Notes: a model not told the origin generated them from the sequence alone. A stretch of DNA of 64,000 nt from Alphaproteobacteria bacterium (GCA_965243135.1 OZ251539.1:3584001-3648000), one strand, 5' to 3'. Shown: positions 32,298 through 49,035, numbered from the stretch's first letter. Translations and numbers: made by a program.

Positions 32298-33359
32298 TCA
32301 CTGGACGGTTTCGCTCGCGCCTTCGCGGAACAGGCCGAGCTTCTCCTGAACCGGCTGGTCGGTGAAACTGAACAGAAACGCGTCGTCGTCCGCCTCGTGG
32401 CGATGCGGATACCAGGCCGGCACGACGAAGGTGTCCTTCTCCTTCCAGGAGATGGTCTGGTCGCCGATACGCGTGCGCCCGGCGCCTTCGACCACGGAAT
32501 AGACCCAAGCTGCCGTCGTTTGGTAGATGTCTCCGGAAAAGCCCGCCGGAAGCCGCTGCATGTAGGTTGCGATCGTCGGCATGACCGGACCGCCGGTCGC
32601 CGGGTTGATGTAGGCGAGCTTGATTCCGTGACGCGGATCGACCTCGCCGCTCTCCGCCAGCCGCTCCAGAGCGGCCCGCGTCTTCGCGTAGGGGTAGTGG
32701 AAGACGGGCGAATTTCCGGTGTCGAACGTCGCGCCGACCGGCAGCATGTTGACGCCGTAACGCGAGATGTTGTCTCCGACCGGCCGCCCCGCCGGAAACT
32801 CCGTTTCCGGATACGGTTCCGCGAACACCGGGCCGAGATGGCGGACCAGCGGGATGTCGAGCCCGTCCAGCCAGACGACGGGCGCTTCGCCGTCATGGCC
32901 GTGATCGTGCCATACCCAGGACGGGGTGAGGATCAGGTCGCCCACTTCCATGTACGCCTTCTCGCCGTTGATCGCGGTGTAGGCTCCGGAACCTTCGACG
33001 ATGAACCGCAGCGCGGCGGGAGAATGCCGGTGCGCCGGCGCGACTTCGCCGGGCATGATCAACTGCAACCCTGCATAAAGGGCTTCGGTTATGCAGGAGC
33101 GGCCCTCGAGCGTCGGATTCTCGAGCACCATGACGCGCCGCTCCGCTTCTTCGGCGGAGATGACGTCGGCCGCCTCCATGATGAAGGGACGGCACTCGGC
33201 GTAGTCCCACTTGTGCGGCGTGGCTGCGGTTACCGGTTCGACCGCGAGAAGATCTTGCAGCACCTCCCATAACGGAGTCATGTTTTTCGCCGCCATCCGC
33301 GCGTAGAAGTCGGCCCGCGTGTTCGTCATCCGGGGCTTTTCATGCAGAGCCCTGTTCAT
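32298..33359 (-). CDS. gtdA: gentisate 1,2-dioxygenase (bicupin)
   Basis: PLWEVL, ERRVMVLENP, LYAGLQLIMPGEVAPAHRH..ALRFIVEG, WHDHG, WLDGLDIP, YINPATGG; RBS GGGAGA before ATG 33359. Confidence 0.9.
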   Translation of the reverse strand: MNRALHEKPRMTNTRADFYARMAAKNMTPLWEVLQDLLAVEPVTAATPHKWDYAECRPFIMEAADVISAEEAERRVMVLENPTLEGRSCITEALYAGLQLIMPGEVAPAHRHSPAALRFIVEGSGAYTAINGEKAYMEVGDLILTPSWVWHDHGHDGEAPVVWLDGLDIPLVRHLGPVFAEPYPETEFPAGRPVGDNISRYGVNMLPVGATFDTGNSPVFHYPYAKTRAALERLAESGEVDPRHGIKLAYINPATGGPVMPTIATYMQRLPAGFSGDIYQTTAAWVYSVVEGAGRTRIGDQTISWKEKDTFVVPAWYPHRHEADDDAFLFSFTDQPVQEKLGLFREGASETVQ

Positions 33360-33907
33360 GGCGTGTCTCCCTGTTCGACCGGCCGGCATTCTAACCCGCA
33401 TCGTCCGCCGGCTCCACACCGGACGGCGGGATGCGTCCGGGCGACAGGTCCATGCACCGGATGGCCCGTCCGGTTTGTCCGGTTTTTTTTGAGCGCCTCC
33501 AAACCACGGAGGCGCGGCGGACGGAACGGCTGCAGGAGCCGAGAAGTTCGAAGGGACGTCGCACCCGCGCGTCCAGTCAAGGCGAATCGGGGCAGGCGTT
33601 TCGGAGCGCATGTTCCTTCCCGGCGTTCCTTTCCAGCGTCGACGTTTTCTCGCGGGGCGTCCCTCTCGCCGGGGTCTTGCCCGGCGCGTCCGTTCGCCGC
33701 AGGGACGGCGGCGGACTGTCCGGCCTCCGCGGAAACGGCGGTCTTGAAAATTCGCGGTTTTCCGCGCCCGACGCGGGGAGATTCTCCGTCCTTCGAAGGC
33801 CGTCGGAATTTCAGGACGCCAGGAACGGCGGCCGCCCTCGACAAGGCGCAGGCCGAACCCGCGGCGCGAGCGGCGGCCTTTCGCGGAGGCGGCCGTCGGA
33901 AAGCCGT

Positions 33908-36295
33908 TCAGGCGGCTTCGCAATCGAACCCGACGACGTTGCGTTCTTGGCGGCTGAACTCCACCCCGATCAGGTGGACCGAACGCCCGAGACGGCGGTA
34001 CTTGTCCGCGTAGCCCTTCTCCCGCAGCTGCGCGAGCGCGGTCCCCTCCCGCCCGCGCTCCACCACCTTGAACTCGAACAGGTAGACGCGCCCGCCGGCG
34101 CGGATCGCCATGTCGGCGCGCCCCAGGCTGCCGCTGTCCTCGGCCACCGGCTCGAAGCCCTCCATCAGGAAGCAGCTGTGGATGACGCTCGCGTAGTGGG
34201 CCTCGTACTTCGCGACGGGGCTGTTCATGTACCATTGGTGCGGGATGGCGGCGAAGACGCCGCGGAACAGGGTCCCGAGGCGCTCGAAGTCGTTCGCCTC
34301 CAGCAGTTCGCCCAGCCGCAGGCGCGCCGTCTTCTTGCGCGCCTCGACCGGGAGCAGTTCTTCCAGCAGGGCCTCGCCCAGGCTCTGGCGCACCTCGAGG
34401 TTCGGATAGTCCAGCCGGTAGCGCCCGTCCTCCTCGCCCGCGATGGGTAGAGTCGAGGACTGGCGCGTTAGCTTTAGGGTCCGGTGGATGTTCCGTCGCT
34501 TTCGCTCCGGGCCTCAGTCCGGCTCCCGTGGCCACGTTTCCAGTCCCCGCTCTCCGAACCGGACGTGCGGATTTCCCGCGCCTCCAGCAGGATCATGCGT
34601 CTCGCCCACGGATGGATTGTCAGCGTTCCCAAAAAACGGCCGGTTTTCCGGACCCGGGAGTTGCACCGTCTCCCATATTTTCCGCCTGTTCTCGCTTTCC
34701 AACCCGTCGCCGAGCCTGTTTACGCCTCGACGACCCCGGCCTCTCGACCGGGTTCCTTCGCTTGTGACGCTTCCGGGATCTCTGGCATGTAGTCGGTTGT
34801 TAGGCATAGCCAATCTCCGAGCCCTTCTCCCTTGCGGCGCCCTTCCTCGCCTGAGGCCCCTTTCCTCCGCCGGCGTTACCCGGCTTCTCCGGTACTACGG
34901 GCCTCTCCGCCACCCTGCCGGCCCGGCCTGCCCCTCGCGGGGTTCCGGTTGACTCGTGCGCGTCACCGACAGGGCTTCCCGTGTTGCTGCTTCCTTCATC
35001 TTCCATGCGTGCCGACATCACTACCCCGGCGGAAACGGTCGGTGCTTTTGTCGTTCTCTTCCCGACCGTCGGCGGCTTTCCCCTAACCTCAGGAGGGTCA
35101 GCTTCCGCATTGACCGTTTCGAGGCCTGCTCAATGTTCACTACTCGTTTCGGCCCGCGTGTTCGCTGAGCGGCCTTCGCCGCCCTTTCCCAGAGTGCTTC
35201 AGCCTACATCGTTACCTCCGTAAACCGCCCTGGCCGCTACCAACCGGAACGACAGTTGTTGGGTGGGATTCGCACCCACCAGAAGAAAGCGCCTTTCCAC
35301 GGCGCACTGAGGTAGCCGGTCTGGAACAGAAGCGCCTCGACATTGTCCACGTCGAAGGCCGAGAGCAGGCTCTCGCTGCCGATCATGCCGTCCAGGTCGG
35401 GCGTGGGCAGGTCGCGGCGCGTCAGCGTCTCGACCAGGAAGGTCGGCGTGCCGCTCAGGAACCAGTAGTTGCCGAACTTGCGTTTGTCGAACAGCAGCAG
35501 GATGTCGAACGGGTTGTAGATCTTTTCCGGTCCGAGCCAGTTGTAGCCGTTGTACCAGCGCCGGACCTCGTCCCGGTCCAGGCCCTCGAGTTCCGGGGCG
35601 AAGACCGCGTCCAGTTCGTCGTCCGTGTAGCCGCAGATATCGCCGTAGCGCTCGTCCAGCGTGATGTCGTTCAGGTTGTTCAGGCCAGAGAACAGGCCCG
35701 CTTTCGAGAATTTGCTCACCCCCGTCAGGAAAACGAAGCGGAGCTGCCTGTCGCAAGCCACCCCGTACAAGCTGCGCAGGAAATTGCGGTTGGCCAGCGC
35801 CAGTTCCCGGTCGCCGAGCGCGTCCAGAATCGGCTTGTCGTATTCGTCCACCAGAACGACCACCTTCTGCCCTGTGCGCTCGTGCAGCGTCCTTATCAGG
35901 CGCCGGAAACGGACCGCTGCCCCGGCGGGGCCCGGTTCGAGGCCGGCCTGCATCTCCGCCTCTTCCAGCTGCGCTTCCACGGTTTCCCGAACCCCGTCCG
36001 GAGTGTCGAAATCGCCCACGCCGCTGAAATCCAGCCGCACGACCGGGTGGCGCGCCGACCAGTCCCACTTGCCGTGCACGGCGAGGCCCCGGAACAACTC
36101 CTCGCTTCCCTCGAACAGCTCCTGCAGCGTGTCCACCAGCAGGCTCTTGCCGAACCGGCGCGGACGCGACAGGAAGTAATACTTGCCCCTCTCGACGAGG
36201 CGGCGCACATGGTCCGTCTTGTCGACGTAGTAGCAATCCATCCCCCGGATCTCCCGGAGGGAGGTCATGCCGATCGGAAGCATGCGTCTCGTCAT
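33908..36295 (-). CDS. AAA-ATPase-like + PD-(D/E)XK nuclease, copy 1, split by a group II intron (exons 36295-35308 and 34446-33908)
   Basis: Joined exons are 1527 nt = 508 aa, colinear with copies 2 and 3 (YYVDKT, SRPRRFGKS, VDEYDKP, TGYLTI, RADMAI..FEFKV..ALAQ). Confidence 0.85.
34447..35307 (-). mobile_element. ORF-less group II intron, 861 nt
   Basis: Starts GTGCG and ends CCTCGACTCTAC; DV-like GCGGGAAATCCGCACGTCCGGTTC plus long DVI; EBS1 TGAGGT matches exon end ACCTCA; removal restores the host frame; no RT motifs. Confidence 0.93.
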
Positions 36296-36549
36296 CCGAA
36301 GAGAGTAGGCCGCAGTGCCGGAACCGTCAAGGAAGAGACGGCCGCGAGCGTGATTGCGTTCGGGCCGCGGCGGGAATTCTCGCCTCCTTTCCAGCCGCCG
36401 CGACCGAGCGCGCTACGACAGGCTTTTCCTGAGCGACAGGGTAGTCAAGGCAACGACTGCGCCAAGCCGAAGCGGGGAAGCGTGTCGCGGCGGCCAGCCC
36501 CTTCGGTAACGATGCTGCCTCGATGCATCTTCCGCGCGGGGCGGACGCC

Positions 36550-37617
36550 TCAGCGGGAATCGCTGCGGAGCTTTATCAAATAACGGAAGAGATCCAGGTA
36601 GCGTTGTATGATGGCCTGTCTTGAGAACTCGGTTTCGAAACGCCGACGTCCCGATGTCGCCAAATTTCGACGGAGCTCCGGGTTTTCGATTAAACGAAAA
36701 ATCGACTTCGCCAGCGCTTCCGTGTCGTCGATCGGAGTTAGCAAACCATCCAACCCGTCCCTGATCAGCCACGCCGGTCCTTTCGAAGCGCACGCCACGA
36801 TCGGCGTTCGGGACGCCCATGATTCGACGATAACGATGCCGAAAGACTCATGCCTCGAAGGGTGAACAACAATATCGGCGCTCGCAATCAGATTCGAAAT
36901 ATCTTCGCGCCAACCGAGGAAACGAATCCTCGAACCTATCCCGATATCCCGCGCCTGTTTCACAAGGCGCGCTCGTTCATCTCCCTCTCCGGCAAGCAAG
37001 AGAAAAACGCCTTCAAGGAGTTTCATCGCATGTAGAAGGACATCGAACCTTTTTGCCGGAGCCAACCTGCCGGCGGCCAACAGCAAAGGGGCGTCCTCAG
37101 GAATATCGAGAGAGTCACGGGGGAGGGGGCTTTCATTTCCAGGTTCATTGATCGGAAAATTGGGAATAAAACTTATCCTTTCTCTAGGCCAGCCATTGTC
37201 GACCGCGAATTGAAGAATATCCGGAGTTACCGCAATCAAATGATCGGAATTATTGATTTGCCTCCTGACATTGTAGTACCCGTCGAGCCGCCCAACCCTC
37301 ACGGCGGAATGTTCGGCAAATCTGGATGCATGACCATTCATCACTGCAGCTCTTGTCTTCCATGAAAGTATGATATCCGGTCGGAATCTATCGATCTCCT
37401 TCGCAATATATGGAATGGATTTGAAATCGAACCACCGTCCCAACGGAAGGGTGACCGTTTCCACCTCAGCCGCTTGGAGCCGCGTAGTGAACGACGCGTG
37501 ATCGCGAACGAACGTACGCTGCGTTATCCCTTGTTTCTGGAAGCTTTCGGCGCATTTGACGAATAATTCTTGCACGCCGCCGAATGGATCTCCTGTCAGC
37601 GTTTGCAACAACCTCAT
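36550..37617 (-). CDS. GT4 (GT-B) glycosyltransferase, copy 1
   Basis: GGVQE, AGRLAPAKRFD, FLGWRED, PSRHESFGIVIVE (EX7E); AT-richer than its flanks. Confidence 0.9.
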   Translation of the reverse strand: MRLLQTLTGDPFGGVQELFVKCAESFQKQGITQRTFVRDHASFTTRLQAAEVETVTLPLGRWFDFKSIPYIAKEIDRFRPDIILSWKTRAAVMNGHASRFAEHSAVRVGRLDGYYNVRRQINNSDHLIAVTPDILQFAVDNGWPRERISFIPNFPINEPGNESPLPRDSLDIPEDAPLLLAAGRLAPAKRFDVLLHAMKLLEGVFLLLAGEGDERARLVKQARDIGIGSRIRFLGWREDISNLIASADIVVHPSRHESFGIVIVESWASRTPIVACASKGPAWLIRDGLDGLLTPIDDTEALAKSIFRLIENPELRRNLATSGRRRFETEFSRQAIIQRYLDLFRYLIKLRSDSR

Positions 37618-37997
37618 TTGGACGAACCCTGCATTTTATTATTCAAAATTACCTCGCTATAGAAGATAAAGTATCGGACAACCACCTGCGATATCGTTTG
37701 GCGTCGTTAACGGACGACCGGTCCACATACCCCGTCCGGATTTAGAACGCTCCCAGACCAAGGAGGCGGCAGCGTCCGGGCGGATTGCCCGAGACGGTTT
37801 CCGCGGAAACGGCGGTCTCGAAAATTCGCGGTTTTCCGCTCTCGAAGCGGGGAAATTCTCCCTCCCTTGAAGGCCGTCGCCATTTCAGGACGCCAGGAAC
37901 GGCGGCCGCCCTCGGCGAGGCGCTGGCCGCCCCGAACATGCGACAGCCTTTCGCGGAGGCGGCTGCCGAAATGTCCGAACGGGACACTCGCCCGGCT

Positions 37998-39542
37998 TCA
38001 GGCGGCCTCGCAATCGAACCCGACGACGTTGCGCTCCTCGCGGCTGAACTCCACCCCGATCAGGTGCACCGAACGACCGAGATGGCGGTACTTGTCCGCG
38101 TAACCCTTCTCCCGCAGCTGCGCGAGCGCGACCCCCTCCCGCCCGTGCTCCACCACCTTGAACTCGAACAGGTAGACGCGCCCGTCGGCGCGGATCGCCA
38201 TGTCGGCGCGCCCCCGGCTGCCGCTGTCCTCCGCGACCGGCTCGAGGCCCTCCATCAGGAAGCAACTGTGGATGACGCTCGCGTAGTGGGCCTCGTACTT
38301 CGCGACCGGGCTGTTCATGTACCACTGGTGCGGAATGGCGGCGAAGACGCCGCGGAACAGGGTCCCGAGGCGCTCGAAGTCGTTCGCTTTCAGCAGTTCG
38401 CCCAGCCGCAGGTTCTCCGTTTCCTCGCGGGCCTCGTTCGGGAGCAACTCTCCCAGCAGGGCTTCGCCCAGGCTTTGGCGCACCTCGAGGTTCGGGTAGT
38501 CCAGCCTGTAACGTCTCCCGCCGTCCTCCTCGCCGGCGATGGTCAGGTAGCCGGTCTGGAACAGAAGCGCCTCGACCGAGATCCTGTCCACGTCGAAGGT
38601 CGAGAGCAGGCTCTCGCTGCCGATCATGCCGTCCAGGCGGGGAGTGGGCAGGTTGCGGCGCGTCAGCGTCTCGACCAGGAAGGTCGGCGTGCCGCTCAGG
38701 AACCAGTGGTTGCCGAACTCGCCCGTTTCGAAGAGAAGGAGGATGTCGAACGGGTTGTAGAGCTTGTCCGCGCCGCGCCAGTTGTAGCCGTTGTACCAGC
38801 GGCGGATCTCGTCCCGGTCCAGGCCCTCGAGTTCGGGGGCGAAGACCGCGTCCAGCTCCGAGTCCGTGTAGCCGCAGATGGAGCCGAAACGGGGGTCGAG
38901 GGTGACGTCGCGCAGGTTGTTCAGGCCCGAGAACAGGCCCGCCTGCGAGAACTTGCTCACCCCCGTCAGGAAAACGAAACGGAGATGCCTGTCGCAGGCC
39001 TTGATCACCCCGTACAGGCTGCGCAGGAAGTCGCGGTTGGCCAGCGCCAGCTCCCGGTCGCCGAGCGCGTCCAGAATCGGCTTGTCGTATTCGTCCACCA
39101 GAACGACCGCCTGCCGCCCGGTGCGCTCGTGCAGCGTCCTTATCAGGCGCCGGAAACGGATCGCCGCCCCGGCGGGGCCCGGTTCGAGGCCGGCTTGCAT
39201 CTCCGTCTCTTCCAGCTGCGCTTCCACGGTTTCCCGAGCCCCGTCCGGGCCGTCGAAACGGCCCACGCCGCTGAAATCCAGCCGCACGACCGGATGGCGC
39301 GCCGACCAGTCCCACCCGTCGTGCACGGCGAGGCCCCGGAACAACTCCTCGCTTCCTTCGAACAGCTCCTGCAGCGTGTCCACCAGCAGGCTCTTGCCGA
39401 ACCGGCGCGGACGCGACAGGAAATTGTACTTGCCCCTCTCGACGAGACGGCGCGCATGGTCCGTCTTGTCGACGTAGTAGCAGTCCATTTTCCGGATCTC
39501 CCGGAGGGAGGTCATGCCGGTCGGAAGCATGCGTTTCGTCAT
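37998..39542 (-). CDS. AAA-ATPase-like + PD-(D/E)XK nuclease, copy 2
   Basis: RPRRFGKS Walker A, VDEYDKP, GRADMAI..FEFKV..AL.Q. Confidence 0.92.
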   Translation of the reverse strand: MTKRMLPTGMTSLREIRKMDCYYVDKTDHARRLVERGKYNFLSRPRRFGKSLLVDTLQELFEGSEELFRGLAVHDGWDWSARHPVVRLDFSGVGRFDGPDGARETVEAQLEETEMQAGLEPGPAGAAIRFRRLIRTLHERTGRQAVVLVDEYDKPILDALGDRELALANRDFLRSLYGVIKACDRHLRFVFLTGVSKFSQAGLFSGLNNLRDVTLDPRFGSICGYTDSELDAVFAPELEGLDRDEIRRWYNGYNWRGADKLYNPFDILLLFETGEFGNHWFLSGTPTFLVETLTRRNLPTPRLDGMIGSESLLSTFDVDRISVEALLFQTGYLTIAGEEDGGRRYRLDYPNLEVRQSLGEALLGELLPNEAREETENLRLGELLKANDFERLGTLFRGVFAAIPHQWYMNSPVAKYEAHYASVIHSCFLMEGLEPVAEDSGSRGRADMAIRADGRVYLFEFKVVEHGREGVALAQLREKGYADKYRHLGRSVHLIGVEFSREERNVVGFDCEAA

Positions 39543-39869
39543 TCGAAGAGGATAGGCCGCCGCGCCGGAACCGTCAAGGCGGCGGCCGCGAGCGTAATTT
39601 CCAGTTCATTTTTCCGGTTTTGCGATTCGATAACCGCCCCCGCCTCAAGGACCGGAAAACGCCCTGTCGCATGATTGCGTTCGGGCAACGGCGGGAATTC
39701 TCGCCTCCTGTCCAGCCGCCGCGACCGAGAATGCTACGACAGGCTTTCCCCGAGCGACAGGGTAGCCAAGGCAACGACTGCGCCAAACCGAAACCGGGAA
39801 GCGTGTCGCGGCGGCCAGTCCCACGGAAACGATGCCGCCTCGACGCATCTCTCGCGCAGGGCGGCCGCC

Positions 39870-40937
39870 TCAGCGGGAATTGCTTCGGAGCTTCATCAAA
39901 TCACGGAAGAGATCCAGGTAGCGTTGTATAATGGCCGACCTTGAGAACTCGGCTTCGAAACGCCGACGTCCCGATGCCGCCAAATTTCGACGGAGCTCCG
40001 GGTTTTCGATTAAACGAAAAATCGACTTCGCCAGCGCTTCCGCGTCGTCGATCGGAGTTAGCAAACCATCCAATCCGTCCCTGATCAGCCACGCCGGTCC
40101 TTTCGAAGCGCACGCCACGATCGGCGTTCGAGACGCCCATGATTCGACGATAACGATGCCGAAAGGCTCATGCCTCGAAGGGTGAACAACAATATCCGCG
40201 CTCGCAATCAGATTCGAAATATCTCCGCGCCAACCGAGGAAACGAACCCTCGAACCTATCCCGATATCCCGCGCCTGTTTCACAAGACGCGCTCGTTCAT
40301 CTCCCTCTCCGGCAAGCAAGAGAAAAACGCCTTCAAGGAGTTTCATCGCATGTAGAAGAACATCGAACCCTTTTGCCGGAGCCAACCTGCCGACGGCCAA
40401 CAGCAAAGGGGCGTCCTCAGGAATATCGAGAGAGTCACGGGGGAGGAGGATTTCATTTCCAGGTTCATTGATCGGAAAATTGGGAATAAAACTTATCCTT
40501 TCTGTAGGCCAGACATTGTCGACCGCGAATTGAAGAATATCCGGAGTTACCGCAATCAAATGATCGGAATTATTGATTTGCCTCCTGACATTGTAGTATC
40601 CGTCGAGCCGCCCAACCCTCACGGCGGAATGTTCGGCAAATCTGGATGCATGACCATTCATCACCGCAGCTCTTGTTTTCCATGAAAGTATGATATCCGG
40701 TCGGAATCTATCGATCTCCTTCGCAATGTATGGAATGGATTTGAAATCGAACCACCGTCCCAACGGAAGGGTGACCGTTTCCACCCCAGCCGCTTGGAGC
40801 CGCGTAGTGAACGACGCGTGATCGCGAACGAACGTACGCTGCGTTATCCTTTGTTTCTGGAAGATTTCGGCGCATTTGACGAATAATTCTTGCACGCCTC
40901 CGAATGGATCTCCTGTCAGCGTTTGCAACAACCTCAT
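39870..40937 (-). CDS. GT4 glycosyltransferase, copy 2
   Basis: Near-identical to copy 1; VGRLAPAKGFD, HEPFGIVIVE. Confidence 0.9.
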   Translation of the reverse strand: MRLLQTLTGDPFGGVQELFVKCAEIFQKQRITQRTFVRDHASFTTRLQAAGVETVTLPLGRWFDFKSIPYIAKEIDRFRPDIILSWKTRAAVMNGHASRFAEHSAVRVGRLDGYYNVRRQINNSDHLIAVTPDILQFAVDNVWPTERISFIPNFPINEPGNEILLPRDSLDIPEDAPLLLAVGRLAPAKGFDVLLHAMKLLEGVFLLLAGEGDERARLVKQARDIGIGSRVRFLGWRGDISNLIASADIVVHPSRHEPFGIVIVESWASRTPIVACASKGPAWLIRDGLDGLLTPIDDAEALAKSIFRLIENPELRRNLAASGRRRFEAEFSRSAIIQRYLDLFRDLMKLRSNSR

Positions 40938-41507
40938 TTGGACAAACCCTGCATTTTATTTTTCAAAATTACCTCGCTATAGAAGATAAAGTATCGGACA
41001 ACGACCTGCGATATCGTTTGGCGTCGTTAACGGACGACCGGTCCACATGCCCCGTCCGGATTTAGAACGCTCCCAGACCAAGGAGGCGGACGGAGCGGCT
41101 GCAGGGACCGAGGAAGTTCGAAGCGGCGTCGCGCCCGTCACCGGGTCAAGGCGAATCGGGGCAGGCGTTTCGAAGCGCATGTTCCTTCCCGGCCTCCCTT
41201 TTCAGCGTCGACGTTTTCTCGCGGAGCGTCCCTCTCGCCGGAGTCTTGCCCGGCGCGTCCGTTCGCCGCAGGAGCGGCGTCCGGGCGGATTGCCCGAGAC
41301 GGTTTCTGCGGAAACGGCGGTCTCGAAAATTCACGGTTTTCCGAGCCCAAAGCAGGGAAATTCTCCCTCCCTTGAAGGCCGTCGCCATTTCAGGACGCCA
41401 GGAACGGCGGCCGCCCTCGGCGAGGCGCTGGCCGCCCCGAACATGCGACGGCCTTTCGCGGAGGCGGCTGCCGAAATGTCCGAACGGAACATCGAACTCG
41501 TCCGGCT

Positions 41508-43046
41508 TCAGGCGGCCTCGCAATCGAACCCGACGACATTGCGCTCTTCGCGGCTGAACTCCACCCCGATCAGGTGGACCGAACGCCCGAGGTGGCGGTA
41601 CTTGTCCGCGTAGCCCTTCTCCCGCAGCTGCGCGAGCGCGGTCCCTTCCCGCCCGCGCTCCACCACCTTGAACTCGAACAGGTAGACGCGCCCGCCGGCG
41701 CGGATCGCCATGTCGGCGCGCCCCCGGCTGCCGCTGTCCTCGGCCACCGGCTCGAAGCCCTCCATCAGGAAGCAACTGTGGATGACGCTCGCGTAGTGGG
41801 CCTCGTACTTCGCGACCGGGCTGTTCATGTACCACTGGTGCGGGATGGCGGCGAAGACGCCGCGGAACAGGGTTTCGAGGCGCTTGAAGTCGTTCGCCTC
41901 CAGCAATTCGCCCAGCCGCAGGTTCTCCGTCTCCTCGCGGGCCTCGACCGGGAGCAGTTCTTCCAGCAGGGCCTCGCCCAGGCTCTGGCGCACCTCGAGG
42001 TTCGGGTAGCCCAGCCGGTAGCGCCCGTCCTCCTCGCCGACGATGGTGAGGTAGCCGGTCTGGAACAGAAGCGCCTCGACCGAGATTCTGTCCACGTCGA
42101 AGGTCGAGAGCAGGCTCTCGCTGCCGATCATGCCGTCCAGGCGGGGAGTGGGCAGGTTGCGGCGCACCAGCGTCTCGACCAGAAAGGTCGGCGTGCCGCT
42201 CTCGAACCAGTAGTTGCCGAACCTGCGCTCGGCGAACAGCAGCAGGAGGCCGAATGGATTGTAGAGCTTCTCCGGCCCGCGCCAGTTGTAGCCGTTGTAC
42301 CAGCGGCGGACCTCGTCCCGGTCCAGGCCCTCCAGTTCCGGGGCGAAGACCGCGTCCAGCTCGTCGTCGGTGCAGCCGCAGATGTCCGAGAACTCCGGCA
42401 CCAGCGTGATGTCGCGCAGGTTGTTCAGGCCAGAGAACAGGCCCGCCTTCGAGAATTTGCTCACCCCCGTCAGGAAAACGAAACGGAGCTGCCTGTCGCA
42501 GGCCTTGATCACCCCGTACAGGCTGCGCAGGAAGTCGCGGTTGGCCAGCGCCAGCTCCCGGTCGCCGAGCGCGTCCAGGATCGGCTTGTCGTATTCGTCC
42601 ACCAGGACGACCGTTCGCTGCCCGGTGCGCTCGTGCAGCGTCCTTATCAGGCGCCGGAAACGAACCGCCGCCCCGGCGGGACCCGGTTCGAGGCCGGCCT
42701 GCATCTCCGTCTCTTCCAGCTGCGCTTCCACGGTTTCCCGAACTCCGTCCGGGCCGTCGAAACGGCCCACGCCGCTGAAATCCAGCCGCACGACCGGGTG
42801 GCGCGCCGACCAGTCCCACCTGCCGTGCACGGCGAGGCCCCGGAACAACTCCTCGCTTCCTTCGAACAGCTCCTGCAGCGTGTCCACCAGCAGGGTCTTG
42901 CCGAACCGGCGCGGACGCGACAGGAAATAGTACTTGCCCATCTCGACCAGGCGGCGCGCATGGTCCGTCTTGTCGACGTAGTAGCAGTCCATCCCCCGAA
43001 TCTCCCGGAGGGAGGAAAAGCCGATCGGAAGCATGCGTTTCGTCAT
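41508..43046 (-). CDS. AAA-ATPase-like + PD-(D/E)XK nuclease, copy 3
   Basis: Same motifs (RPRRFGKT); intact 512 aa. Confidence 0.92.
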   Translation of the reverse strand: MTKRMLPIGFSSLREIRGMDCYYVDKTDHARRLVEMGKYYFLSRPRRFGKTLLVDTLQELFEGSEELFRGLAVHGRWDWSARHPVVRLDFSGVGRFDGPDGVRETVEAQLEETEMQAGLEPGPAGAAVRFRRLIRTLHERTGQRTVVLVDEYDKPILDALGDRELALANRDFLRSLYGVIKACDRQLRFVFLTGVSKFSKAGLFSGLNNLRDITLVPEFSDICGCTDDELDAVFAPELEGLDRDEVRRWYNGYNWRGPEKLYNPFGLLLLFAERRFGNYWFESGTPTFLVETLVRRNLPTPRLDGMIGSESLLSTFDVDRISVEALLFQTGYLTIVGEEDGRYRLGYPNLEVRQSLGEALLEELLPVEAREETENLRLGELLEANDFKRLETLFRGVFAAIPHQWYMNSPVAKYEAHYASVIHSCFLMEGFEPVAEDSGSRGRADMAIRAGGRVYLFEFKVVERGREGTALAQLREKGYADKYRHLGRSVHLIGVEFSREERNVVGFDCEAA

Positions 43047-43246
43047 TCGAAGAGGGTAGGCCGCCGCGCCGGAGACGTCAAGGAGGAGGCGGTCGCAAGC
43101 GTGATTAACCGACGATATGACCGGTCCATATGGCCTGTCCGGTTTTGGAACGCCTCAGGGAAGCGGCGGCGGGAAAGCGCATCTTCGTCCGGCGGAACGT
43201 CGCGCGACGGAAGCCCTCGCGCTGGAAAGCAGGGTCTGCGTCGGCT

Positions 43247-44206
43247 TCACGCGCCGTGATAGGCGCGGTACCACTCGACGAATTTCGGGATCCCGTCCTC
43301 GATCGGGGTCGTCGGCGCGTAGCCGAGATCCCTCTCGGTCGCGCCGATGTCGGCCCAGGTTTCCTGCACGTCGCCGGGCTGCATCGGCTCCAGGATCCTT
43401 TCGGCGCGCCTGCCGAGCGCCTTCTCAAGGAGTTCGATCATCCGCGTCAGCGACTCGGACCGTCCGGCGCCGACGTTGTAGAGCCGGTGCGGCGCCTCGG
43501 CGGGTGGCGGATTGTCCAGCGCCGCGACGACGCCGGTCACGACGTCGTCGACGAAAGTGAAATCCCGCTTCATGTCGCCGCGATTGAAGACGCGGATCGG
43601 ACGGCCTTCGAGGATCGCCTCCGTGAAGAGGTAGAGCGCCATGTCCGGCCGTCCCCACGGCCCGTACGCGGTGAAGAAGCGCAACCCGGTCTGCGGCAGG
43701 CCGTAGAGGTGGCCGTAGCAATGGCTCATGTGCTCGTCGGCCAGCTTGGTCGCCGCGTAGAGCGAAACCGGCCTGTCGACCCGGTCCTCGACGGAGAAGG
43801 GAAGGCTGTCGTTGCCTCCGTAGACCGAACTGGAACTCGCGTAGACCAGATGTTCGAAGGACGGCGAGCGGCGGCACAGCTCCAGGACGGCCAGATGGCC
43901 CGTCAGATTCGATCCGACATAGGCGAACGGGCGATCGATCGAATGACGGACGCCCGCCTGGGCCGCGAGGTGAACGACGCGCCCGGCGCCGCCGAGAGCC
44001 GCCAGCGCCGCCGGGTCGGCCAGATCGATCCGGTGGAATTCGAAGTCCTTCCGGCTCGTCAACAGCGCCAGCCGCGCCTTCTTGAGCGCGACGCTGTAGT
44101 AGTCGTTCAGGTTGTCCAGCCCGACGACCCGCTCGCCGCGCTCCAGAAGGCGGAGGGCGGCATGGTATCCGATGAACCCTGCGACGCCGGTTACGAGAAC
44201 CGTCAC
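43247..44206 (-). CDS. NAD-dependent epimerase (UDP-glucuronate 4-epimerase type)
   Basis: TGVAGFIG, HLAAQAGVRHS, YASSSSVYG, YAATK, YGPWGRPDMA. Confidence 0.92.
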   Translation of the reverse strand: MTVLVTGVAGFIGYHAALRLLERGERVVGLDNLNDYYSVALKKARLALLTSRKDFEFHRIDLADPAALAALGGAGRVVHLAAQAGVRHSIDRPFAYVGSNLTGHLAVLELCRRSPSFEHLVYASSSSVYGGNDSLPFSVEDRVDRPVSLYAATKLADEHMSHCYGHLYGLPQTGLRFFTAYGPWGRPDMALYLFTEAILEGRPIRVFNRGDMKRDFTFVDDVVTGVVAALDNPPPAEAPHRLYNVGAGRSESLTRMIELLEKALGRRAERILEPMQPGDVQETWADIGATERDLGYAPTTPIEDGIPKFVEWYRAYHGA

Positions 44207-45419: not shown

Positions 45420-45887
45420 ATGGACGAGGCGGTCGGGAACCTGAGGCGGCGGGTCGCGAGCTACCCGCTGGGCGAAGCGCCGGGCCACCTGATCCGGCGA
45501 TGCCAGCAGCGCGCCATCGACCTCTTCGTCGAGGAGGTCGGGGACGGCGGCCCGACGCCGCGGCAGTTCGCCGTGCTGCTGACCGTGTACCAGAAGCCCG
45601 GGATGATGCAGGCCGATCTGGTCCGCGTCACCGGCATCGACCGCAGCACCCTCGCCGAAATCATCCGCAGGTTGACGGACCGCGGCCAGCTCGCGCGCGT
45701 CCGAACGGCGGCGGACCGCCGCGCCAACGCGCTGACTCTGACCCCCGCGGGAGAAGCCGCGCTGCTGGCCGCGTTCGAGGCCGCCGAGCGGGCGCAACGC
45801 CGCATCCTCGAACCCGTCGCGCCGGACCGCCGGGGCGATGCGATGGCCGTGCTCGCGCTGCTGGCCGGGCTGCCGCCGCATGCCTGA
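45420..45887 (+). CDS. MarR-family regulator (HcaR/PcaV-like)
   Basis: PGHLIRRCQQ, TPRQFAVL, GIDRSTLAEIIRRL, DRRANALTLTPAG; divergent from the LLM gene. Confidence 0.9.
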   Translation: MDEAVGNLRRRVASYPLGEAPGHLIRRCQQRAIDLFVEEVGDGGPTPRQFAVLLTVYQKPGMMQADLVRVTGIDRSTLAEIIRRLTDRGQLARVRTAADRRANALTLTPAGEAALLAAFEAAERAQRRILEPVAPDRRGDAMAVLALLAGLPPHA

Positions 45888-48800
45888 ATCGGAGGCCGGA
45901 CGGCCCGCCCTGATTCCGGGCAGCGAGGTTACGATGGTCGGAACCGTCAAGAGCCCGCGGCGCCATTCCTCCCGGAACGGCCCCTTCGCAACGGCGACCC
46001 TGCTCGCCGACGACGGACGCGAGGTCCGCGCCGTCTGGTGGGACGCGGAAACGGCGCCGGCCGCCGATTGGCGCGTGGCGGTGCGCGGCGAGGTCAAGCT
46101 GCGCGACAGCGCTCCCCAGATCCAGGCGCGCAGAACCGAGCGGCTCGAACCGACGCGCCATCCCCTCGCCTCCGTCGCCCGCTTCTATCTCGGCTGCGTC
46201 GAAGCCGAAGCGGCCGACGAATTGCGCCTGCGGACCGGCGAGCCGTCCCACGTCCTTCTCGCCCACGGCGCCAGTCCGCTGTACGGTCCGAGAGTTCTTC
46301 CCGATTCCGCAGATTCCTGGTGCCGCAACCGCCAAGAGGCGATCGGCGAGACGATCGTCGCAGGCTGGCCGCTGGCGGCGGGAGTGGACGTCAAGGGCTT
46401 CGCCTTGTCGCCCCTTCTCGTGTCCGATGCGGAGATCGAACGCCGGGACGACGGTTGGATCTGTCGGTGCAGATCCGTCAGCCTCAACCCCTACGCCCTC
46501 GACCTTCTGGGCGTCGAGCGCGAGGAGCGCGACGATCTGGTCCGTCGGACCGCAGGCGATCCGGCCGTCGAAGAAGCCGCGTCGCCGGGGCGGCGGGCGG
46601 CGGCCATTCTCGAAACGCTCCGCGCCTTCGGCGTCGAGGCCCTGGGGGATCCCCAAGCTCTTTCGCCGCCGGGCGACGAACCCGGCATCCATAACGCCGC
46701 GGCGCTCGCGACGTCCACCGGAGCGGCCACGGCCAGCTGGATGCTGATTCAGGATCTCCTGGCTCTGGCGAACGATCCCCGGCTCATGGAGAAAGGGCCG
46801 GCCGCGGTCTTCGCGGGGATTTCGCCGGTCCCGCCGACGCCGACGCCGGACTCCCATCCGTCTCTCCTGCCGTCGACGCTGGCTCAGGATCGAGCGGTGC
46901 ACGCCGCGATGAAAAACGTGCTCACCGTCGTGACCGGTCCGCCGGGCACGGGAAAATCGCAAATGATCGTGAACGCCGTGGCGGCGGCCGTCGTCCGCGG
47001 CGAAAGCGTCCTCCTGGCGTCCAAGAACAACCACGCCGTGGACGTCGTGATCGAGCGGCTTCGGAAAATCTCTCCGGCCGCCGCCGTCGCGCGGGCGGGA
47101 TCCGCGAGCCGGCAGGAGGAACTCGCGAAAACGGTTCGCGAGGCGGCGAACGCCATGCGCCGGTCGAGCGGCGTTTGGGAGCCGTCCGAGAAATGGCTCG
47201 AAGCGAAAAAGCGCGTCGAGGAGGTGCATCGTCTCCTGGGCAACCGGATCCAGGCCGAACGCGAACTGGACGAAGCCCGGCGGGCGCTGGACTCCGCCCT
47301 TCCGGAACTGCCGGCGGGCGCGCCCCTCGACGTCGATTGCGACGCGCTCTCGGCCGCTGTCGCCGACGCCGCGAGGGCGCTCGGCCGTTTCGGCGACCGC
47401 CCCGGCATTTTCCGGAGACGCCGCCGTCACGCGGAACGGCTCGCCCGGGCCCGCGACGCCCTCGATCGGGTGTCCGCCCTGATGGGCGGCATCGCGACGG
47501 AGGACTGCCTCTCCTCGGTCGCCGACCGTCCGATCCGAACCGCGCAGCCGCGGCGCGATTTCCGTTCGATCGAAGATCTCGCCGGGCGGCTTCGCGACGT
47601 TTCCGCCGTCGGGCGCGCGGCGAAAGCCGCCGCCTCCCGGCTTGCGAAGTTGCCGCTTCCTCACCAGTTGGAGGACCGGCTGCGCGACCTGGCCGACGAC
47701 CGGGTCGCCGCGGGCCGGGCCGTTTTCGACGCGCACTGGAAACGGATCGTCCGAGAGAGGTCCGTCGATGCCGCCGACAAACTGGCCGCCGCGCTGGACG
47801 ATTCGCAGAAATCGGGCGCGCGCCGGGCGCGGGCGCTGATCGCCGAATCGCTCCCCGCGATCCCGATATGGGGCGTCACCAACCTGTCGGCGCGGACCAA
47901 CCTGCCGCTGCGGCAGGGACTGTTCGACCTGGTCGTCGTGGACGAAGCTTCCCAGTGCGACATCGCGTCCGCGCTGCCGCTGCTCGTCCGCGGGAAACGC
48001 GCGCTGATCATCGGGGACCGGCGGCAGCTCGTTCACATCTGCTCTCTCGGCCGCGCCCGCGAACGAATCATCGGAGAGCGCTGCGGACTTACGGCCGATC
48101 AGCTGGCGGAGTTCAGCTATCGCGACCGCAGCTGCTTCGATCTCGCGGCCGGACGCGCCGGCCGGTCGTCGATCTTTCTCGACCGGCATTTCCGTTCGCA
48201 TCCGGCGATTTCCGGTTTCGCCAACGAGCGTTTCTACGATCGCCGCATGCAATTGTGCGCCGAGGCGCGGCCGCCCGAAGGGCTTTCGGCGATCCAGTGG
48301 ATCCGGCATCCCGGAGACAGCCGTCCGGGTCCGCGAGGGAGAAGCAGAATGAATCCGGAAGAGGCCGCCGCCGTCGAGAGCGAGGTCGCGCGGGACCTGC
48401 CTTTTCTGGACGAAATCGGCCTCTCCGTCGGGGTGGTCACGCCGTACCGCGCTCAGGTGGACAAGATTGCCGGGCTCCTGTCGAAGCGGGGCGTCGGACC
48501 CGATCGGGTCAACGTCGCGACCGCCCACGGGTTCCAGGGCGACGAACGGGACGTCATCTATTTTTCTCCCGTCGTCGGGCCGTCGATGACGGAACGCCAG
48601 ACCGCCTTCGCCGCGGATCCGAATCTCGTGAACGTCGCATTGACGCGCGCTCGCAGACGGCTGGTGATCGTCGGCAACTTCGACGCCTGCGCGGCCTACG
48701 ACAACCCGCTCCGCGATCTCGCGCGCTACGCGGATCACCTCGAAAGCAAAATGGAAGACAATCCGCTGCGCCTGGCGCTCGGCGAGGCGCTTCTGCAGCG

Positions 48801-49035
48801 CGGCATCCTCGCGGCGGCGGGACGGAGCGTCGGGAGCGACCCCGTGGATCTGGCGATAATCGGCGACCGCGTCCGCATCGACGTCGAGTGCGCGCCGTTT
48901 CCGCCCGGCGGCGATTCCGCGCGGGACAGGCGCGTCGAGGCCGCGGGCTGGAAGGTCCTGCGTTTCGACGGCCGGCGGCTCGGCCACGATCTCGACGGCT
49001 GCGTCGAGACGATACTGAACGCCCTCGGCGCCTGA
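45880..49035 (+). CDS. SF1 (Upf1/DNA2-like) helicase with N-terminal OB fold and C-terminal DUF559/Vsr-like domain
   Basis: GPPGTGKS, VDEASQ, GDRRQL, HFRSHPAI, TPYRAQ, HGFQGDERD, NVALTRAR; C-terminal VDLAI..IDVEC..RDRRVEAAGWKVLRF. Confidence 0.88.
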   Translation: MPESEAGRPALIPGSEVTMVGTVKSPRRHSSRNGPFATATLLADDGREVRAVWWDAETAPAADWRVAVRGEVKLRDSAPQIQARRTERLEPTRHPLASVARFYLGCVEAEAADELRLRTGEPSHVLLAHGASPLYGPRVLPDSADSWCRNRQEAIGETIVAGWPLAAGVDVKGFALSPLLVSDAEIERRDDGWICRCRSVSLNPYALDLLGVEREERDDLVRRTAGDPAVEEAASPGRRAAAILETLRAFGVEALGDPQALSPPGDEPGIHNAAALATSTGAATASWMLIQDLLALANDPRLMEKGPAAVFAGISPVPPTPTPDSHPSLLPSTLAQDRAVHAAMKNVLTVVTGPPGTGKSQMIVNAVAAAVVRGESVLLASKNNHAVDVVIERLRKISPAAAVARAGSASRQEELAKTVREAANAMRRSSGVWEPSEKWLEAKKRVEEVHRLLGNRIQAERELDEARRALDSALPELPAGAPLDVDCDALSAAVADAARALGRFGDRPGIFRRRRRHAERLARARDALDRVSALMGGIATEDCLSSVADRPIRTAQPRRDFRSIEDLAGRLRDVSAVGRAAKAAASRLAKLPLPHQLEDRLRDLADDRVAAGRAVFDAHWKRIVRERSVDAADKLAAALDDSQKSGARRARALIAESLPAIPIWGVTNLSARTNLPLRQGLFDLVVVDEASQCDIASALPLLVRGKRALIIGDRRQLVHICSLGRARERIIGERCGLTADQLAEFSYRDRSCFDLAAGRAGRSSIFLDRHFRSHPAISGFANERFYDRRMQLCAEARPPEGLSAIQWIRHPGDSRPGPRGRSRMNPEEAAAVESEVARDLPFLDEIGLSVGVVTPYRAQVDKIAGLLSKRGVGPDRVNVATAHGFQGDERDVIYFSPVVGPSMTERQTAFAADPNLVNVALTRARRRLVIVGNFDACAAYDNPLRDLARYADHLESKMEDNPLRLALGEALLQRGILAAAGRSVGSDPVDLAIIGDRVRIDVECAPFPPGGDSARDRRVEAAGWKVLRFDGRRLGHDLDGCVETILNALGA

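Follow-up and report, generated by a model that had tools for sequence, protein, structure and literature searches.

An integron-like array of DUF1703 and glycosyltransferase genes in an alphaproteobacterium is probably a product of insertion sequence remnants and recombination between repeats

The window analysed here, a 64,000-nucleotide (nt) stretch of the genome of an Alphaproteobacteria bacterium (GCA_965243135.1, OZ251539.1:3584001-3648000; positions are counted from its first nucleotide unless the genome is named), contains a 9.9-kb insertion between two conserved, co-directional genes, those for a NAD-dependent epimerase/dehydratase and for gentisate 1,2-dioxygenase (gtdA). The insertion consists of three tandem units, each with a paralog of the DUF1703 family (AAA1, AAA2 and AAA3, with AAA-ATPase_like and PDDEXK_9 domains), and two of the units also encode a GT4 family glycosyltransferase (GT; GT1 and GT2). 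A short motif, M, recurs at four junctions and is followed in each unit by a region denoted X. The initial annotation took this arrangement for a module of cassettes bounded by repeats, with an optional cargo slot for the GT. The framing as a new repeat-bounded cassette system does not hold, and the locus is better explained by remnants of insertion sequences (IS) and recombination. The array probably arose when a GT gene delimited by IS ends, itself probably of horizontal origin, became part of a unit that was then duplicated by homologous recombination between direct repeats; as recombination between repeats explains the structure, no new mobility mechanism is needed. The locus illustrates that debris of IS elements, together with paralogs, can take on the look of an integron-like module. 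Its novelty is low as regards the module, and moderate as regards the scale of the DUF1703 family and the spread of a group II intron within this family.

The gene order, with three AAA genes, two GT genes and M at four junctions, is borne out by gene and Pfam calls and by direct repeats spaced 3241-3510 nt apart; the M-X-AAA-GT unit has a period of 3320 nt, and all five genes are encoded on the minus strand. The locus is composed of four kinds of repeated DNA, namely three DUF1703 paralogs, four ends of one IS (IS-A), two fragments resembling the end of another IS (IS-B) and one group II intron that lacks an open reading frame (ORF). M was searched for genome-wide as an IUPAC pattern of the earlier consensus with up to 3 mismatches, with the reversed pattern as the control. 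Exact matches are found at the three places where M had been described (37717-37750, 41037-41070 and 43120-43153), and there are 7 matches in the whole genome versus 0 for the control; the degenerate copy near 33440 is seen in alignments. In units 1 and 2, about 1.34 kb (36358-37701 in unit 1) lies between the AAA upstream region and M, and the GC profile and the alignment agree with the description of an AT-richer GT segment at this junction, the G+C content (GC) being 0.49-0.55 at 36800-37600 and 40200-41000 versus 0.64-0.70 around. The unit 3 junction is free of a GT, so that the AAA upstream region directly abuts M. The sequences that meet at the GT junction in units 1 and 2 share scattered microhomology only. 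The features of the locus, from left to right, are as follows.

32298..33362, minus strand: gtdA (gentisate 1,2-dioxygenase), conserved left-flank gene; TIGR02272, 496.6 bits, above the cut-off
33440..33631, plus strand: degenerate IS-A end (degenerate M), about 75 nt from the gtdA start, and transposase 5' remnant (first part of X1); blastn match of 33487-33631 to the unit 3 copy at 81.5%, and alignment of 30 copies
33632..33907, minus strand: remainder of X1, comprising the middle repeat and the conserved downstream flank of AAA1; sequence comparison
33908-36295, minus strand: AAA1 as a whole, a split gene; PF09820 and PF08011
33908..34446, minus strand: AAA1 exon 2 (PDDEXK_9 domain); PF08011, E 4e-17
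34447..35307, minus strand: ORF-less group II intron of 861 nt, in sense orientation; RF02003, 75.1 bits
35308..36295, minus strand: AAA1 exon 1 (AAA-ATPase_like domain); PF09820, E 1.6e-57
36296..36357, minus strand: AAA1 upstream region, promoter-like and conserved family-wide; conservation over 130 copies and alignment
36383..36566, minus strand: IS-B-like end fragment, into which GT1 runs with its final codons and stop; 178-179 nt matched at about 30 genomic places, identity about 74%
36550..37617, minus strand: GT1, GT4 glycosyltransferase of 355 amino acids; PF00534, E 5.5e-37
37702..37769, plus strand: IS-A outer end (M of unit 2), truncated after about 68 nt; pattern match, blastn and copy alignment
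37770..37997, minus strand: X2, with a shortened middle repeat and the AAA2 downstream flank; sequence comparison
37998..39542, minus strand: AAA2, intact DUF1703 gene, 514 amino acids; PF09820, E 1.1e-57, and PF08011, E 8.5e-16
39643..39886, minus strand: IS-B-like end fragment of unit 2, overlapping the GT2 stop codon; genome matches
39870..40937, minus strand: GT2, GT4 glycosyltransferase of 355 amino acids; PF00534, E 3.3e-39
41022..41200, plus strand: IS-A outer end (M of unit 3) and transposase 5' remnant (X3, 1 to about 140); pattern match, copy alignment and transposase translation
41201..41507, minus strand: remainder of X3, comprising the middle repeat and the conserved downstream flank of AAA3; sequence comparison
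41508..43046, minus strand: AAA3, intact DUF1703 gene, 512 amino acids; PF09820 and PF08011
43047..43100, minus strand: AAA3 upstream region, conserved and promoter-like, abutting an IS-A end; alignment
43101..43153, plus strand: IS-A outer end (right-hand copy of M), about 95 nt from the epimerase stop codon; pattern match and copy alignment
43247..44206, minus strand: NAD-dependent epimerase/dehydratase, conserved right-flank gene; PF01370, E 2.6e-51

The motif M is not a dedicated attachment site. Judged by its sequence, it represents the outer terminus of an ISNCY-like IS in decay, whose transposase gene begins in the first part of X. A 191-nt query consisting of M and the 5' part of X has 31 matches, 4 of them local and 27 elsewhere in the genome. 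The 30 aligned copies have about 200 nt and one sharp terminus in common, and the repeat runs inward to an element of about 0.92 kb that encodes, on the reverse strand, the N-terminus of a helix-turn-helix type transposase. Positions 1 to about 126 of X3, on the plus strand, translate to a degraded N-terminus of this transposase, as read from the DNA. It is the combination of the sharp shared terminus, the inward element and the ISNCY-like transposase N-terminus in the 5' part of X that identifies M as an IS end. Both IS-A termini begin with TGTCA and share GTACC at positions 26-30, a resemblance that was noticed by eye and a pair that the blastn-short search for inverted repeats did not report. 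At the locus, the IS-A ends are truncated, with lengths of 68-190 nt. An Rfam scan of 31-46 kb with E up to 1 yields no match for M or X, and a role of M as a terminator, considered at one stage, was dropped when M proved to be an IS end.

The surroundings of the non-local copies are likewise at odds with a dedicated site. The suggested check for M and X at other AAA paralogs does yield cases, since 7 of the 27 non-local copies of M with the 5' part of X precede another AAA start by 59-97 nt, with the relative orientation unchanged. The other 20 lie away from this AAA-proximal position, and 18 have no AAA start within 1.5 kb downstream; these 18 are mostly located 8-90 nt before unrelated ORFs. 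Conversely, M is present upstream of only about 8 of 130 AAA copies. Region X, described as a conserved non-coding stretch of about 450 bp, does recur; however, its length varies (248 nt in unit 2, owing to a deletion of about 185 nt, versus about 420 nt in unit 1 and 448 nt in unit 3), and it is composite, being made up of the transposase 5' remnant, the middle repeat and the conserved AAA downstream flank of about 100 nt. Copies of the middle part (41201-41400, about 200 nt), 69-89% identical, are found in the vicinity of at least 15 other DUF1703 genes, upstream of some and downstream of others. The statement that no transposase is found nearby was mistaken, as IS remnants make up both M with positions 1-126 of X and the spacer that follows each GT, whereas the statement that there is no integrase stands: no recombinase domain is found in the ORFs scanned over 29.5-52 kb.

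The two GT genes (PF00534 at 134.6 and 127.4 bits, both exceeding the gathering score; none of the NCBIfam equivalogs attains its cut-off) are 96.9% identical at the nucleotide level and are the only copies in the genome. The 101 nt between GT and M are 97% identical in both units and also unique to the locus. The GC of the GT genes is about 0.50 versus about 0.67 nearby. The best match in the congeners is partial, at 36% identity; full-length relatives, with 43-48% identity, are present in 13 genomes of other genera of the same family. In a large protein collection, the nearest relatives from outside this genome show 83% identity (two clusters, on contigs of 4,055 and 1,494 nt), followed by 66%, all on metagenome contigs, whereas species-representative genomes offer 47% at best. 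The low GC and this distribution, with close copies at this locus only and distant ones in the congeners, suggest that the GT was probably acquired horizontally.

On the side of the GT opposite to M, the first 178-238 nt after each GT gene have about 30 counterparts across the genome (about 74% identity) and correspond to the end of a 1651-nt IS (IS-B). This element is represented by 27 near-full copies that are 89.8-100% identical and have terminal inverted repeats and 7-8 bp target duplications; it is apparently active, to judge from these copies. Its ORF of 485 amino acids has no Pfam match and a weak NCBIfam match to IS4. The IS-B-like match starts about 6 nt inside the terminal repeat of the element, and the GT stop codon lies within that repeat. 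Homologs of the GT align only to residues 1-344/349 of 355, which is consistent with the 3' end and stop codon of the GT gene being derived from the IS-B-like end. With M on one side and the IS-B-like end on the other, the GT segment has a terminus of a different IS element at each end. Found at this locus only, and with IS ends on either flank, the GT does not qualify as a recurring cargo. One IS-B copy, at 2666222-2667872 of the genome (G000:C1, L019), is inserted in the reverse-transcriptase gene of a group II intron that itself lies inside a DUF1703 gene, a triple nesting.

The insertion is lacking in related genomes. Orthologs of the epimerase with 65-72% identity are found in three congeners (G001, G002 and G004), and in all three the gene is adjacent to gtdA, with a gap of about 85 to 600 nt; in the fourth congener, G003, no epimerase ortholog is found at E up to 1e-20. 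Thus, the expectation of an empty gtdA-epimerase locus in relatives is confirmed in every congener with an epimerase ortholog, but that of a single M at this locus is not: M was not found in the 4 congeners and hence is not an ancestral single site. As the cassette reading anticipated, M and X are not confined to this locus and the congeners show an empty site. Neither an attachment-type (att) site nor a target duplication was found at the array.

In the course of events that we favor, the GT gene would have arrived with or between IS elements, beside an AAA gene. The M-X-AAA-GT unit would then have been duplicated in tandem by homologous (RecA-type) recombination between the direct repeats that bound it, either the IS ends or the AAA paralogs or both. 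Subsequently, the AAA copies would have been overwritten in patches by gene conversion with distant paralogs, giving rise to a mosaic. Because GT1 and GT2 are about 97% alike and are found nowhere else, at least the GT unit was duplicated locally. The third unit might have lost its GT or might never have had one.

The AAA genes themselves are indeed mosaic. Identity along the units, in sliding windows, forms a patchwork without a single switch point, and a clean chimera by unequal crossover in AAA2, with an AAA1-like part and an AAA3-like part, was rejected as the sole event on account of this patchwork. In a tree of 128 copies, the nearest relatives of AAA1, AAA2 and AAA3 are c1993700, c24708 and c1263026, respectively, all of them distant paralogs, and the smallest clade that includes all three local genes comprises 32 copies. 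Similar duplications are found in other AAA arrays of the genome: one spans 5.0 kb (97.1% identity), several span 1.7-2.8 kb (95-97%), and duplicated ArgJ and MFS genes are located between AAA copies. The two largest arrays (G000:C1 1905893-1952695 and 2880452-2905513), with 15 members each, contain nested segmental duplications, with fragments or duplicates of ArgJ, an MFS transporter and 8xMP between the paralogs. The interpretation of the unit as self-amplifying or integrating at specific sites finds no support in the duplication of ordinary genes in other arrays or in the flanks of 130 AAA copies, where direct repeats do not exceed the control (median of 9 nt versus 8 nt with mismatched flanks, the long ones coming from tandem arrays).

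The DUF1703 family is greatly expanded in this genome. A tblastn search with AAA2 gives 237 matches that collapse to 170 loci in 77 clusters. Of the loci, 98 are full-length single pieces, 32 are split and 40 are partial; apart from the two arrays of 15, there are clusters of 7, 6, 6, 5 and fewer, and 43 singletons. Altogether, the family occupies roughly 3% of the genome. By blastn, 126 matches of at least 1300 nt show 74-95% identity. The local genes are typical members, with all Pfam scores above gathering (PF09820 and PF08011: 195.6 and 58.3 bits for AAA2, 195.6 and 61.1 for AAA3, and 195.0 and 62.5 for the two parts of AAA1). Among the 128 copies that span the full length, 107 are open. 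The DUF1703 variants of the Walker A (R-x-R-R-F-G-K-S/T) and Walker B (D-E-Y/F-D) motifs, as given by Knizewski et al. 2007 (PMC1913061), are present in 105 and 102, respectively, of these 107 copies, and a D...(D/E)xK pattern, a pattern match only, in 98 (from residue 439 in AAA2). The median ratio of nonsynonymous to synonymous substitution rates (dN/dS) is 0.54 over 123 pairs, with a range of 0.31-0.75. Most of the copies are, on this sequence evidence, retained as putatively working genes under relaxed purifying selection. No hypervariable segments stand out, the lowest mean conservation in 15-residue windows across the 107 proteins being 0.61. Searches of PADLOC, NCBIfam and PDB sequences with AAA2 return no match.

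The conserved unit has sharply defined upstream borders. Conservation among the copies starts abruptly at a -35-like TTGACG about 42 nt before the ATG and fades about 70 nt past the stop codon. Over the last 50-75 nt upstream, 102-119 of the 130 copies share sequence with unit 3, versus at most 4 beyond about 100 nt. An element consisting of TTGACG, a 17-nt spacer and TACYCT is present in about 120 of 130 paralogs, far better conserved than the surrounding DNA; locally, it is located at 36296-36357 (TTGACG, 17 nt, TACTCT), 39543-39600 and 43047-43100. The ATG follows only about 8 nt after the second hexamer, so that the predicted mRNA would be leaderless. In a promoter and terminator scan, the AAA2 promoter-like site is the sole sigma-70 result, and terminator-like sites number 9 versus 11.2 in shuffled sequences. 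At 39600-39675, the AAA2 upstream region contains an extra 74 nt resembling a second, degenerate copy of an AAA promoter-proximal region, possibly a scar of an earlier recombination between the 5' ends of paralogs. About 45 nt past the AAA3 stop codon, there is an imperfect inverted repeat with 32-nt arms set 35 nt apart (41366-41397 and 41433-41464); within it, GCCGCCTCCGCGAAAG shows about 80% conservation among the paralogs, and there is no run of T after it.

The expansion is lineage-specific. Only five of 31 genomes, the present one included, have DUF1703 matches: the congeners G004, G002 and G003 contain 21 matches, 11 pieces and 2 pieces, respectively, and a genome of the same order (G030) has 9 matches, whereas the congener G001, which is 93% complete, has 0. 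Within the genus, then, copy number ranges from none to about 130.

Several observations weigh against duplication between repeats as a complete account. Unequal crossing-over does not account for the spread of DUF1703 genes over 77 separate places. The best IS-A copy reaches 87.7 bits (E 8.3e-25) against NF033594 (ISNCY family), for which the curated cut-off is 250, a shortfall due to the copies being frameshifted. The distance between the IS-A end and the -35-like box is 18-19 nt in 5 of the 7 AAA copies examined, and such fixed spacing could reflect a specific insertion site or a specific joint. The IS-A copy at 3014010 of the genome shares 96.8% identity with one that has no AAA gene nearby, whereas the neighbouring AAA genes are at most 90% alike, which makes it a poor fit to simple co-duplication. 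Finally, neither a copy-number variant nor a circle nor an empty form is seen in short-read contigs, which break at repeats. Independent insertion of IS-A upstream of AAA genes was also considered, with a mixed outcome: the IS ends are 52-81% alike versus 76-90% for the adjacent genes, which favors co-duplication, with which the 96.8% copy conflicts.

Among the other explanations, the one that deserves most attention, unlikely as we consider it, is a Campbell-type build-up, in which circles from other AAA arrays, or foreign DNA with the same IS, integrated serially by single crossovers at the IS-A copy upstream of gtdA, so that the units would be imported. Such a process would account for the IS-A end at the beginning of each unit, the IS ends on both sides of the GT and the distant paralogs that are the closest kin of all three AAA genes, and it fits the typical location of IS-A 8-90 nt upstream of genes, as is the case for the degenerate copy at gtdA. 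Nevertheless, the 97% identity of the two GT genes and of the adjoining 101 nt, found nowhere else, indicates local duplication of the GT unit, and the mosaic identity is explained equally well by gene conversion. Quite improbable in our judgment is the cassette proposal of the initial annotation, in which M-X-AAA would be a unit that amplifies itself or integrates at specific sites, with a slot for optional cargo, and would owe its movement to some unrecognised activity, for instance that of the DUF1703 ATPase-nuclease itself. The direct repeats of M that bound every unit, the lack of the insertion in congeners, a family of 170 loci at 77 places whose conservation starts sharply at the promoter, the 7 other AAA starts preceded by M and the constant distance to the -35-like box are all compatible with this scheme. 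Yet M belongs to an IS family most non-local copies of which precede unrelated genes, it is lacking upstream of nearly all AAA copies and in the 4 congeners, and farther than about 75 nt upstream no more than 4 of 130 copies have sequence in common with unit 3; moreover, the GT is bounded on the other side by a second IS end and occurs at this locus only, and neither a target duplication nor a recombinase gene was found. A related but distinct and still improbable idea, marginally less so than the cassette, is that the DUF1703 genes are gene-sized selfish elements, in which a unit of about 1.7 kb, from the promoter to the downstream hairpin, would copy itself by means of its own ATPase-nuclease through cut-and-repair akin to homing. 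If true, this would explain the 170 loci at 77 places, the sharp conservation boundaries and the lineage-specific copy numbers, and the IS ends and the group II intron would be using the family as a multicopy landing pad.

That the tandem units are an assembly artefact, a mis-join of dispersed paralogs, is hardly credible, although a family with about 130 near-full copies at 74-95% nucleotide identity could confuse an assembler. The genome is a single 6.1-Mb contig, the unit-specific sequences are unique to the locus, and contigs from sequencing runs cover its junctions between unique and repeated sequence. Contigs of 4 runs from 4 studies, some labelled sponge metagenome, were compared with the region; one of them, run X1, may be the source sample. 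Sequence nearly identical to the region is present in runs labelled sponge metagenome. Contigs from the three further studies bridge GT1-M-X2 (run X6, 37325-37870), GT2-M-X3 (run X9, 39577-41187, about 94% identical) and AAA3-M-epimerase (run X6, 43045-43290), and variants specific to GT1 and to GT2 both occur in runs X1, X4 and X6. No run contig joins across the whole array or across a GT unit; contig joints between paralogous AAA positions, with short sides of 21-43 nt, were treated as repeat noise.

The split of AAA1 had escaped the initial annotation. Homology of AAA1 to AAA2 breaks at 35308 and resumes at 34446, with 861 nt between, and removal of these leaves an open frame of 508 codons' worth of protein (508 amino acids). 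The segment has the ends 5' GTGCG and 3' CTAC, which fit the group II pattern GUGYG...AY, and scores 75.1 bits against RF02003 (group-II-D1D4-4), with a gathering score of 49; RF00029 (domain V/VI) matches weakly at the exact 3' end (34447-34596; 16.3 bits versus a gathering score of 40, E 2.1). By these features, AAA1 is a carrier of an ORF-less group II intron, with the predicted spliced frame intact. The insertion site in the intron-bearing paralogs, CTACCTCA followed by CCATCG, is the same as in AAA1. Of 13 intron copies examined, 6 are flanked by both AAA exons at this same site, 2 by the 3' exon only, and 5 are elsewhere. Copies outside the window, detected by sequence comparison, are located at G000:C1 1150704-1151571, 1934092-1934958, 2889578-2890374, 4119187-4120047 and 2665261-2668831. 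The five ORF-less introns in AAA genes are 90.9-99.3% identical (96.8-99.3% among four of them), compared with 84-94% for the flanking exons; being more alike than the exons, the introns entered paralogs that had already diverged. Four full-length copies, of 1.9-3.6 kb, carry the RVT_1 (E 2.7e-24) and GIIM (E 1.6e-18) domains, with the reverse-transcriptase frame broken in all four, and GIIM is found at only three places in the genome, all within full-length copies.

In Thermosynechococcus, ORF-less group II introns are reportedly mobilised in trans and have spread to many sites of one genome. The intron described here is similar in being an 861-nt derivative without the reverse-transcriptase gene and in having near-identical copies (96.8-99.3%) in more diverged paralogs (84-93%); the differences are that the target is one conserved site in a protein-coding multigene family and that all full-length copies have a broken reverse transcriptase (RT). 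With an ORF-less intron at one and the same position in no fewer than six DUF1703 paralogs, the genome offers a clear natural example of an intron that has spread within a multigene family.

The array itself can be compared with three familiar arrangements. That direct repeats, for instance IS copies or paralogs, recombine homologously and thereby duplicate or amplify genes in tandem is a textbook mechanism. The locus conforms to it in the repeats that bound the units, the uniform period, the co-duplicated passenger gene and the similar events elsewhere in the genome; it differs in that the repeats are truncated IS ends of 68-190 nt and paralogs of 1.5 kb, and the event itself is one that we infer. 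Integron cassette arrays, which depend on the IntI integrase and attI/attC sites, likewise consist of serial units with variable content and a recurring short motif with imperfect inverted repeats. Here, however, there is no integrase, M is an IS terminus with transposase coding sequence rather than attC, the same gene is present in every unit, and the GT has IS ends instead of cassette boundaries. The third arrangement is the capture of foreign genes between IS copies, as in composite transposons. A low-GC GT gene between the termini of two IS elements resembles this, but the ends come from different IS families and, with only a truncated remnant left of each, the segment is no longer capable of transposon-like movement.

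As for the DUF1703 family, the closest counterpart is Cardinium cCpun, for which 25 paralogs are described, with recombination among them and no known function (PMC6387759). The two genomes have in common the two-domain architecture, the lineage-specific expansion, the recombination between paralogs and the lack of an assigned function. They differ in scale, with 170 loci and 107 open full-length genes here versus 25 there, in divergence, with 64-94% amino acid identity to AAA2 here versus a mean of 39% in cCpun, and in the organization of many copies here in tandem arrays of up to 15. According to the same paper, only 9.8% of species have 10 or more copies. With 25 as the largest case named there, the 170 loci are among the largest expansions that we found in print. 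The organism appears well suited to studies of the function of DUF1703 proteins and of the way in which their family multiplies.

Two further observations concern the surroundings. IS-A-like ends at G000:C1 3678387-3679697, 2087534-2089813 and 5913908-5914789 are located just upstream of genes that look foreign or defence-related, as judged by their N-termini, and one of these genes has a GC at third codon positions (GC3) of 0.35. To the right of the locus, a large ORF similar to superfamily 1 (SF1) helicases (45838-49035, plus strand; AAA_11/AAA_12, 1065 amino acids) lies beside a MarR-like ORF, with overlapping frames in a GC-rich stretch.

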